This document shows, in pieces, positions 25,404 through 52,816 of a DNA stretch of 64,000 bases (position 1 is the stretch's first letter; the number at the start of each line of letters is the position of its first letter). The stretch covers positions 32,001 through 96,000 of IMG/VR virus record IMGVR_UViG_3300045256_000282. One strand, 5' to 3'. This stretch comes from a virus. The position numbers and the translations under genes are program-made. A model generated the notes under the pieces. It was not told where the DNA came from, searched no databases, and worked only from the letters and a program-made list of their open reading frames with translations.

Positions 25404-25604
25404 TTACTGCTTTTTTCCTTTAGCTGCCATTTCTTTAGCCGCCGCAAACACCCAGCGTCTTGCTGTATACTGATTCCAGTGAAGATTTAACTCAGTGTCT
25501 GTTTCTTTATGAAAGCCCCAACAGTGAGAGCCGTCGCATAGCACCACCCACCCATCGGGTAGGGGCTTGAATCTTTTTGGGTATTGGTACTCAAAAATTG
25601 TCAT
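25404..25604 (-). CDS. Hypothetical protein
   Basis: 66 aa, ATGA-coupled. Confidence 0.5.
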   Translation of the reverse strand: MTIFEYQYPKRFKPLPDGWVVLCDGSHCWGFHKETDTELNLHWNQYTARRWVFAAAKEMAAKGKKQ

Positions 25605-26035
25605 AAACCTTTGTTTTTCCTATCAACTTTCTTCTGCAGCTCTAAAACCTTCTTATCGTGCTCCTCGGTCCACTCTCGAAGGGTGACCTCTCCGAAGACT
25701 GCGTAGGTTCGAACATATTCCGAGGTCGCGTCGTCTAAAACTTTATATCTCAGGTTCATCTGCCAGATTTGGCCGCCAGCTCGAGACAGTAGGCGTTCCA
25801 TGATCGGAAAATTCTTTTTATTGATAACGCCAGTAGAGACCATCTCCTTGACCATCTCGACCTCTTTCGCAGTTTCAGGAGAAGTATAGTACCCCTCAAA
25901 AAGCTTAACCTCACCCCACATCTCCTCATCGATCTCGCCCTGAACATCATTCACGTAGTATTGGCCTGTAGGCGCTCCCCAGCGGTCGGCATACTCCTGG
26001 ATCGAAGGTAACTTGCAGATTCTCTTCATGACCAT
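25601..26035 (-). CDS. Hypothetical protein downstream of structured leader
   Basis: 144 aa, AAGGAG RBS. Confidence 0.65.
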   Translation of the reverse strand: MVMKRICKLPSIQEYADRWGAPTGQYYVNDVQGEIDEEMWGEVKLFEGYYTSPETAKEVEMVKEMVSTGVINKKNFPIMERLLSRAGGQIWQMNLRYKVLDDATSEYVRTYAVFGEVTLREWTEEHDKKVLELQKKVDRKNKGL

Positions 26036-26059
26036 ACTTAGGGCTCCTTAGTTAAAACT

Positions 26060-26288
26060 TTGAACCGATGAGGCGCAACCCTCCACTTGCTCGGTATCTA
26101 CACAAGGCGGCATAATTTAAGGAACCACGCCAGCCAAAGGTCCGGTAAAATCATGGGTTCTACCTAGCCCAGGTGAGGTACCTCCCACCAAGTGTTGTCT
26201 ATTGTTACGAGTCCAACTGTGCCTCGGGAGCTGCCGCTCCTATCCCAACTTAGTATCGAGAGCTACCCGACCTATGGTTGGAAAACTT
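26060..26288 (-). ncRNA. Candidate structured ncRNA or long structured 5' leader
   Basis: No ORF of 60 aa or more on the minus strand; several helices including a GGCA-tetraloop hairpin; G.U pairs favour the minus strand; own promoter. Confidence 0.5.
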
Positions 26289-26294
26289 ATACAT

Positions 26295-26323
26295 ATACTA
26301 TCAGAACTCAAAAAAACTTTCAA
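26295..26323 (-). promoter_or_regulatory. Sigma70-type promoter
   Basis: TTGAAA-17-TAGTAT with TG extension. Confidence 0.6.
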
Positions 26324-26479
26324 ACACTTTCATCTCTTCATCACTCATCCGGCCCATTATCACTGACACCATACCAGGATTCCCCTTAATGATCCACCCC
26401 ATCTTGGTACCGTCTGTCCTTTTGATGTACCTGATGGCAACCATTAATCCAATTCCTTGTTGAGTTCTTTTAAACCCGG

Positions 26480-26866
26480 TCAGGTATTCTTTTTCTTCTT
26501 TTCAAAAGCCTTACGAACCTTGATGCACTGCTTATACAGCCTCTCGACCTCGGCCATTCGTTCCTTGATCGGAGCGTCACTCCAGAACTGGTCATCCATG
26601 AGATCAGGAAGAAATCTAGGACCCCATGCGATAGGACGACGACCTTGGGTGTGGCCAGGAGCATCAAAGCTATTGTAAAACCCCTGAAAGTTCTGGTCAC
26701 CTGTGGCTAGGTGAAAGAACAACTCTCGGATTGCATAGAACGTGTCAGAGTCCCAATCGCTGTGCTCCAGCTCAAACTTCTTGTAAGAAATTTCTTTTAC
26801 AAGCTTATATGCGTGAGTATGGTGCGCTTTAATAAGTCTGTCTAAGGCTTCTATTGTTGAGGTCAT
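26480..26866 (-). CDS. Hypothetical protein
   Basis: 128 aa, GGAG RBS. Confidence 0.6.
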   Translation of the reverse strand: MTSTIEALDRLIKAHHTHAYKLVKEISYKKFELEHSDWDSDTFYAIRELFFHLATGDQNFQGFYNSFDAPGHTQGRRPIAWGPRFLPDLMDDQFWSDAPIKERMAEVERLYKQCIKVRKAFEKKKKNT

Positions 26867-29393: not shown

Positions 29394-29590
29394 ACATCCT
29401 CATTTCTGTAGCTAAGGTCAGGTTTTTCCTTCGCATTTAGCAGAGTGTTTTACTCCACTAACAATGGCCCGACTTTCTTTTGATATTTTTACAACTATAA
29501 TCTTACAATCTTTTGAACAAGACTTTTTTGTTTCATAAAGAACTTTAAGACTAGTTTCATTTTTTCTTCTATTTCTTAGCCACAATTTTT

Positions 29591-44664: not shown

Positions 44665-44738
44665 TGGTTGCGGGACCCAGAATCGCACTGGGGTCTCGAG
44701 GTTATGAGCCTCGCGTGGTACTTCTCCACTATCCCGCT
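44665..44738 (-). tRNA. tRNA-Met(CAU), initiator-like
   Basis: AGCGGGA/UCCCGCA-ACCA with 1:72 mismatch; CGAGG-CUCAUAA-CCUCG; T loop UGCGAUU. Confidence 0.85.
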
Positions 44739-52741: not shown

Positions 52742-52816
52742 CTTTTTCTCCTGAAACCAGAATATCAATCCGAACGGTATTGGTCAAGTGATATTATGTT
52801 ATATGCAGTTGCCCTG

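Follow-up and report, generated by a model that had tools for sequence, protein, structure and literature searches.

A 265-nt non-coding gap in an uncultured phage genome and its proposed reading as a long untranslated 5' leader with two stable hairpins

Analysis of a non-coding gap between two minus-strand genes of an uncultured phage points to an untranslated 5' leader, belonging to a transcript that would run from a promoter at 26323-26295 into the gene for a 144-aa protein and carrying two stable hairpins at its 5' end, a reading that is given a probability of about one half. The feature is of an ordinary kind, at an unusual length and without conservation. Coordinates refer to the window, the whole 64,000-nt stretch of DNA that was analysed, which comprises bases 32001-96000 of a 149,068-bp phage contig from IMG/VR (CheckV completeness 93%, 45% G+C).

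Proteins encoded by the phage include TerL, a portal protein, a GroEL-like chaperonin, a family-A-type DNA polymerase, a ribonucleotide reductase and an Rnl1 ligase. The chaperonin gene (phrog_5725, E 3e-86) lies directly upstream of the large terminase, outside the window (L015:4689-6455, genome 4689-6455). The only cultured relative found was Myxococcus phage Mx1, with 29% amino acid identity over a baseplate protein, and a TerL search revealed 35 uncultured relatives with 38-80% amino acid identity, many of which are 150-177 kb long. By TerL the nearest of them is IMGVR_UViG_3300049846_002010 (80%), a contig that, from where TerL is placed on it, probably does not extend over the region of the gap. 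The gap is located near the 3' end of a long leftward block in which the minus-strand genes are small and closely packed or overlapping; it covers 265 nt (26036-26300, minus strand) and separates a 47-aa ORF (26301-26444) from the 144-aa ORF (25601-26035). A crude gene caller leaves many other "gaps" in the leftward block, most of which contain small genes, and truly non-coding stretches of more than 200 nt are rare there, 26036-26300 being among the very few. Its G+C content of 49% is higher than that of the genome (45%) and also higher than that of its flanking genes, which is unusual for a plain spacer.

Regarding coding capacity, the initial annotation had noted the lack of a sizeable ORF on the minus strand, and this was borne out, as the longest ORF inside 26036-26300 on this strand in the ORF list has 27 aa and a hexamer score of about 0 per codon. 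The hexamer coding model was trained on 75 long ORFs of the phage genome and gives reference values of 0.50 +/- 0.16 per codon for in-frame coding sequence and -0.63 +/- 0.25 out of frame. ORFs and open stretches in the gap, on both strands, scored between -0.35 and +0.15 per codon, whereas the three genes flanking the gap scored 0.37-0.42, and the gap is thus non-coding by the ORF list and the hexamer score. A weak frame-1 hexamer signal in the gap disappeared with a better background, and no coding remnant of a decayed gene was detected in the gap by tblastn, tblastx or hexamer scores. The features of the locus, in the order in which they would be transcribed, are the following.

26301-26444, minus strand: 47-aa ORF upstream of the gap; coding score 0.37 per codon; its final codons hold the promoter
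26295-26323, minus strand: plausible sigma-70-type promoter by consensus match, TTGAAA, 17 nt, extended -10 TGa-TAGTAT; shares nucleotides with the stop codon of the 47-aa ORF
26243-26283, minus strand: hairpin 1, outer stem UUCCAAC/GUUGGGA around an inner stem; starts about 5 nt past the predicted transcription start
26212-26275, minus strand: two tandem 32-nt units (26275-26244 and 26243-26212), identical at 22/31 positions (71%)
26227-26240, minus strand: hairpin 2, GGAGC-GGCA-GCUCC with a GNNA tetraloop; pair probability 0.97-0.98
26051-26211, minus strand: untranslated remainder, without structure above chance, RBS-bearing ORF or terminator; non-coding by hexamer score
26033-26050, minus strand: RBS AAGGAG (26049-26044) and ATG (26035-26033) of the 144-aa gene, as read from the sequence
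25601-26035, minus strand: 144-aa gene, the first gene after the leader; coding score 0.42 per codon

The promoter motif TTGAAA-17-TAGTAT had been recognized in the initial annotation and was found again at 26323-26295, where an extended -10 TG is present besides. It matches a class of promoters on the same strand of this phage, TTGAC-N16/17-TGn-xAxxxT, with members at window positions 52759, 47483, 32424, 31441, 30515 and 28977. In the other members of this class the distance from the -10 element to the start codon is 15-45 nt, whereas at 26323-26295 it is about 255-259 nt. Based on the class match a promoter at 26323-26295 is plausible, and with 259 nt against 15-45 nt its leader would be unusually long. 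The transcription start predicted from the -10 element would lie at about 26288-26287. A terminator scan of the gap gave no terminator-like site; the 3' hairpin proposed in the initial annotation is followed by UCAAAGUUUU and not directly by a U-run. Given the class-typical promoter, the lack of a terminator-like site, and a good RBS and ATG where the gap ends, the transcript most likely reads through into the 144-aa gene. Another member of the same promoter class, at window 34493-34452 on the minus strand, is immediately followed by a perfect hairpin, CGTAGG-TATATC-CCTACG, before an RBS, and on the basis of this example 5' hairpins after promoters may recur in the phage. Direct and inverted repeats of 11-12 nt on either side of the gap and of the 47-aa ORF were set aside, as they occur at about the frequency expected by chance according to the estimate made here; one of them is a 12-nt inverted repeat (26303-26314 and 26457-26468, 11/12 complementary) that brackets the 47-aa ORF exactly.

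Non-random structure in the gap is limited to its first approximately 60 nt, which hold the two hairpins. Hairpin 1 (26285-26241) has a folding energy of -15.4 kcal/mol and a z-score of -3.18, with none of 300 shuffles being as stable, and its outer stem has a pair probability of 0.60-0.76 in the ensemble of the predicted 253-nt transcript, from which pair probabilities were taken throughout. Together the two hairpins reach -24.3 kcal/mol over 61 nt (z -3.27), which ranks in the top 0.3% of the genome's 61-nt windows by raw energy and in the top 0.5% after correction for G+C, a stability that is notable, though not unique genome-wide. The hairpins coincide with a tandem duplication of 32 nt that is absent from the observations of the initial annotation and in which the blocks ATAGG, GG, AGCTC, CGA and AGTTGG are common to both units. 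Of 2000 dinucleotide shuffles, with all offsets between 12 and 79 allowed, 0.05% equalled or exceeded an identity of 22/31 (P about 5e-4), and the consensus of the shared positions has only these two copies in the 64 kb at up to three mismatches, with 0 expected. A position-by-position comparison shows that unit 1 cannot form the GGAGC/GCUCC hairpin of unit 2, nor unit 2 the stem of unit 1; the hairpins of the two units use different columns, and the duplication has therefore kept no common fold. Both hairpins and the duplication are statistically real.

The remainder of the gap gives a different picture. The initial annotation had described a highly structured RNA of about 230 nt, which was not confirmed: the minimum free energy of the whole gap is -79.9 kcal/mol, compared with -80.5 +/- 5.2 kcal/mol for dinucleotide shuffles (z +0.11), 102 of 200 shuffles being at least as stable, and the plus strand gives z -0.34. 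Repeated values for the whole gap range from +0.11 to -0.13, and the predicted transcript 26288-26050 has z -0.09. With folding no better than that of shuffled sequence, the outcome is the one that the initial annotation itself had named as speaking against its proposal. The complementary segments that it listed do occur in the DNA where they had been placed, and chance alone is expected to supply hand-drawn helices in 265 nt at about 49% G+C. Within the ensemble of the 253-nt transcript CGAG/CUCG has a pair probability of 0.33-0.35, the long-range segments ACAC/GUGU and GGUGG/CCGCC have 0.01 or less, and the 3' hairpin ACCGA/UCGGU has 0.01-0.02, so that three of the five proposed helices (the long-range helix counted twice, and the 3' hairpin) are at a probability of 0.02 or less. 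The multibranch part (26197-26098) has z -1.4, the 3' hairpin z -0.5 and the 3' half z -0.2. Regarding the details of the proposal, the loop GGCA of hairpin 2 had been classed as GNRA, but its third base is a C, making it GNNA. A preference for the minus strand had also been claimed; it holds for hairpin 1 (z -3.2 on the minus strand and -1.9 on the plus strand) and fails for the 81-nt 5' domain, whose plus-strand fold (z -3.7) is no less stable than its minus-strand fold (z -2.1). Many real RNAs escape z-scores of the minimum free energy.

Elsewhere in the window, an AT-rich non-coding stretch of 197 nt (29394-29590, minus strand) has z -5.1 against 100 shuffles, and the case for a structure is stronger there than in the gap; a promoter-like site on the plus strand ends at 29509, within this stretch, which could be regulatory or origin-like.

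Known RNA families were not detected in the gap. Against Rfam 15 at the gathering thresholds the whole window contained only a tRNA-Met at 44668-44738 and nothing in the gap, and at E up to 10 the region 25900-26500 gave only two chance snoRNA matches, both within the 144-aa ORF. ARAGORN with default and with 80% thresholds detected no tRNA or tmRNA in 25901-26500, and with 70% thresholds and introns allowed it gave only meaningless calls in the same region. As to a role of the leader in regulation, the Shine-Dalgarno sequence AAGGAG is 71% paired in the ensemble, with diffuse partners, and its occlusion is not above chance, as the unpaired fraction is 0.29 compared with 0.41 +/- 0.18 with shuffled leaders and 27% of the shuffles are as occluded. 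A riboswitch or a leader acting by sequestration of the Shine-Dalgarno sequence was rejected, there being neither a terminator/antiterminator nor an Rfam aptamer, and the Shine-Dalgarno sequence being no more occluded than in shuffles. The suggestion that the gap is a regulatory leader for the ORF at 25601-26035 thus holds in part: the promoter, the lack of a terminator, and the RBS and ATG fit a leader, while neither Rfam nor the Shine-Dalgarno test gives a sign of a regulatory role.

Regarding homologues, searching 50,697 phage records by BLASTN with the 1.4-kb region gave no match. With the gap as query, BLASTN on the complete records of 19 related phages (one obtained via the 144-aa gene and 18 via TerL, the latter at 38-80% amino acid identity) gave nothing or chance matches of 14-30 nt. 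Two covariance models, each built from a single sequence (the 5' domain, R1, and the multibranch part, R2), matched only themselves in the phage's own genome, the 19 related records and three metagenome loci. In exact-pattern scans the stem pattern had 0 matches in IMG/VR, the repeat-consensus pattern had 0 matches in IMG/VR and 0 in 185,579 GTDB genomes, and the pattern of the unit-2 hairpin had 13 scattered single matches and no arrays. In the sequences searched the gap appears as an orphan without homologue. The 128-aa upstream gene also had no relatives in the scans made.

The gene downstream, by comparison, belongs to a family kept in several uncultured large phages. Homologues of the 144-aa protein with 32-44% identity and an invariant motif, DRWG.P.G, were found in four lineages (L010/L011/L012, L013/L014, L064 and P0002), at L010:406-849, L013:1706-2164 and L064:1474-1974 and, for P0002, on an 8.7-kb Logan contig. 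The gap is missing from all four homologous loci: wherever their DNA was readable (the P0002 Logan contig left out), the homologue's start directly adjoins a coding gene or lies within its end, and the genes upstream of the homologues are unrelated between lineages and to anything in the gap. AlphaFold2 with a five-sequence alignment gave a model of the 144-aa protein with pLDDT 89.7 and pTM 0.76, which had no match below E 0.1 in the PDB by Foldseek and no Z above 3.0 by VIA-align, and Pfam, PHROGs and PADLOC contained no family for the protein. Neither Pfam nor PADLOC gave a match to ToxN, CptN or TenpN, and fold Z was at most 3.0, results by which that family is not excluded. Nothing suggests that the 144-aa protein is an RNA-binding partner or a toxin, and the idea that the gap encodes an RNA partner of this protein is unlikely, given that its homologues in relatives are directly abutted by unrelated coding genes, without a gap.

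The following mechanism would account for the locus. Transcription would start at the extended -10 sigma-70-type promoter at 26323-26295 and would continue through the 144-aa gene and five small genes that follow it, to the end of the leftward block. The hairpins would begin about 5 nt after the predicted start, on the diverged 32-nt tandem duplication, and their most likely role would be to shield the 5' end of the mRNA from 5'-end-dependent decay, a stabilizing role suggested by analogy to 5'-terminal stem-loop stabilizers such as the ompA leader. The remaining approximately 190 nt would be a spacer without detectable structure, coding capacity or conservation. The 5' untranslated region of Escherichia coli ompA is an example of a 5'-terminal stem-loop that stabilizes mRNA. 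The locus resembles stabilizers of this type in having stable hairpins a few nucleotides from the predicted 5' end, a long leader and a normally translated gene; it differs in that the leader is longer (about 255 nt) and has no sequence relation to them, and in that the start here is a predicted one. Against the leader reading, a leader of about 255 nt is an outlier in its promoter class and takes up one of the very few truly non-coding stretches above 200 nt in the block, its G+C content is above that of the genome, and its hairpins are not unique genome-wide. The outlier length and the G+C content (49% compared with 45%), and the fact that statistics of the minimum free energy miss some real RNAs, keep several rival explanations alive.

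Comparison with known RNA systems bears on some of these. Phage-encoded small RNAs under early promoters have been reviewed (PMC12197685), and the gap is like them in being a promoter-driven non-coding stretch within a phage gene block, but differs in lacking a terminator, a discrete 3' end signal, conservation and a target prediction, and in having a fold that is mostly at chance level. Type III toxin-antitoxin systems have RNA arrays (ToxI), which have a phage counterpart in pseudo-ToxI (PMC3475682, PMC5086642), that of phage PhiTE being a mimic of the host type III antitoxin array (PMC3475682). Here, too, a promoter and a small protein gene enclose short direct repeats in tandem; however, there are two units at 71% identity instead of near-identical repeats, no terminator precedes the gene, and the 144-aa protein has no ToxN-like family or fold signal and occurs in relatives without the repeats. 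A type III toxin-antitoxin array (ToxI, CptI or TenpI, with near-identical repeats of 34-45 nt) was accordingly rejected as an identity for the gap, which has only two 32-nt units, identical at 22/31 positions and with their hairpins in different columns. RNA anti-CRISPRs, in which phages mimic the CRISPR repeat with solitary repeat units (PMC10651486), share with the gap a hairpin-bearing unit of about 32 nt, the size of a CRISPR repeat, in a phage; the units here differ in being adjacent and diverged, and exact-pattern scans, which register exact matches only, found no CRISPR array with a matching repeat.

Among the rivals, the gap could be a functionless scar, the remnant of a mosaic recombination junction or of a gene that decayed long ago, kept only for its promoter, with the hairpins and the duplication as by-products of replication slippage. 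This is unlikely, although several observations would fit it: the genes next to the 144-aa gene are different ones in each lineage, as is typical of mosaicism, the gap is unique to this phage among the homologous loci compared, the repeat units have drifted to 71% identity without a common fold, and a coding-like G+C content goes together with a neutral hexamer score. However, there is no translated similarity between the gap and the upstream genes of the relatives, the hairpin stability (z -3.2) exceeds what would be expected of a diverged duplication, and neutral DNA is usually purged from phage genomes. It is quite unlikely that a small RNA of about 230 nt, either stand-alone or processed, transcribed from the same promoter and ending near ACCGA/UCGGU, acts in trans on RNAs or proteins of the host or the phage. 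Of the features that define such an RNA, its own promoter was found, by consensus and class match, and an intrinsic terminator or a defined 3' end was not. The class-typical promoter, the long non-coding stretch in a compact block, the G+C content above the mean and the stable 5' hairpins would suit a small RNA, but there is no terminator-like site, the 3' hairpin has a probability of 0.02 and z -0.5 and no direct U-run, the whole-gap z is about 0, and neither an Rfam match nor, in the searches made, a homologue was found. The novel structured non-coding RNA that the initial annotation had inferred is not supported, the gap folding like shuffled sequence (z +0.11).

An element acting at the level of DNA appears distinctly improbable. 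Under this reading a phage or host regulator of the promoter would bind the two direct repeats of 32 bp, which follow the promoter closely at a spacing of about three helical turns, as an operator or roadblock. The tandem repeat is significant and has the conserved blocks ATAGG, AGCTC and AGTTGG, and the 5' domain of 81 nt loses no stability on the plus strand relative to the minus strand, which would be expected of DNA symmetry rather than of an RNA-specific fold; against this, only two copies exist, at 71% identity and with no further copy in the genome, and no DNA-binding gene was found nearby. There is similarly a slim chance that the gap is a lineage-specific phage non-coding RNA with the 5' hairpin pair on the 32-nt units as its core, which might draw off a host RNA-binding defence or RNase as a decoy or regulate the terminal operon in cis; under this reading it would have arisen too recently, or be too uncommon, for current collections to contain homologues. 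The proposal that the units are a decoy RNA mimicking a host type III antitoxin array or CRISPR repeat, and so disarming host defence, is highly improbable: hairpin-bearing tandem repeats of about 32 nt do stand directly after the promoter, but they are only two, at 71% identity and with different folds, Rfam gives no match even with E up to 10, the pattern of conserved positions is absent from the IMG/VR and GTDB collections, the unit-2 hairpin pattern occurs as 13 single scattered matches without arrays, and the downstream protein carries no ToxN, CptN or TenpN signal.

As it stands, an orphan untranslated leader in an uncultured phage matters little. If the host were found, two aspects of the locus might reward later work, namely the long leader with its 5' hairpins on a 32-nt duplication and the family of the 144-aa protein, which has a confident model and no match to a solved fold.
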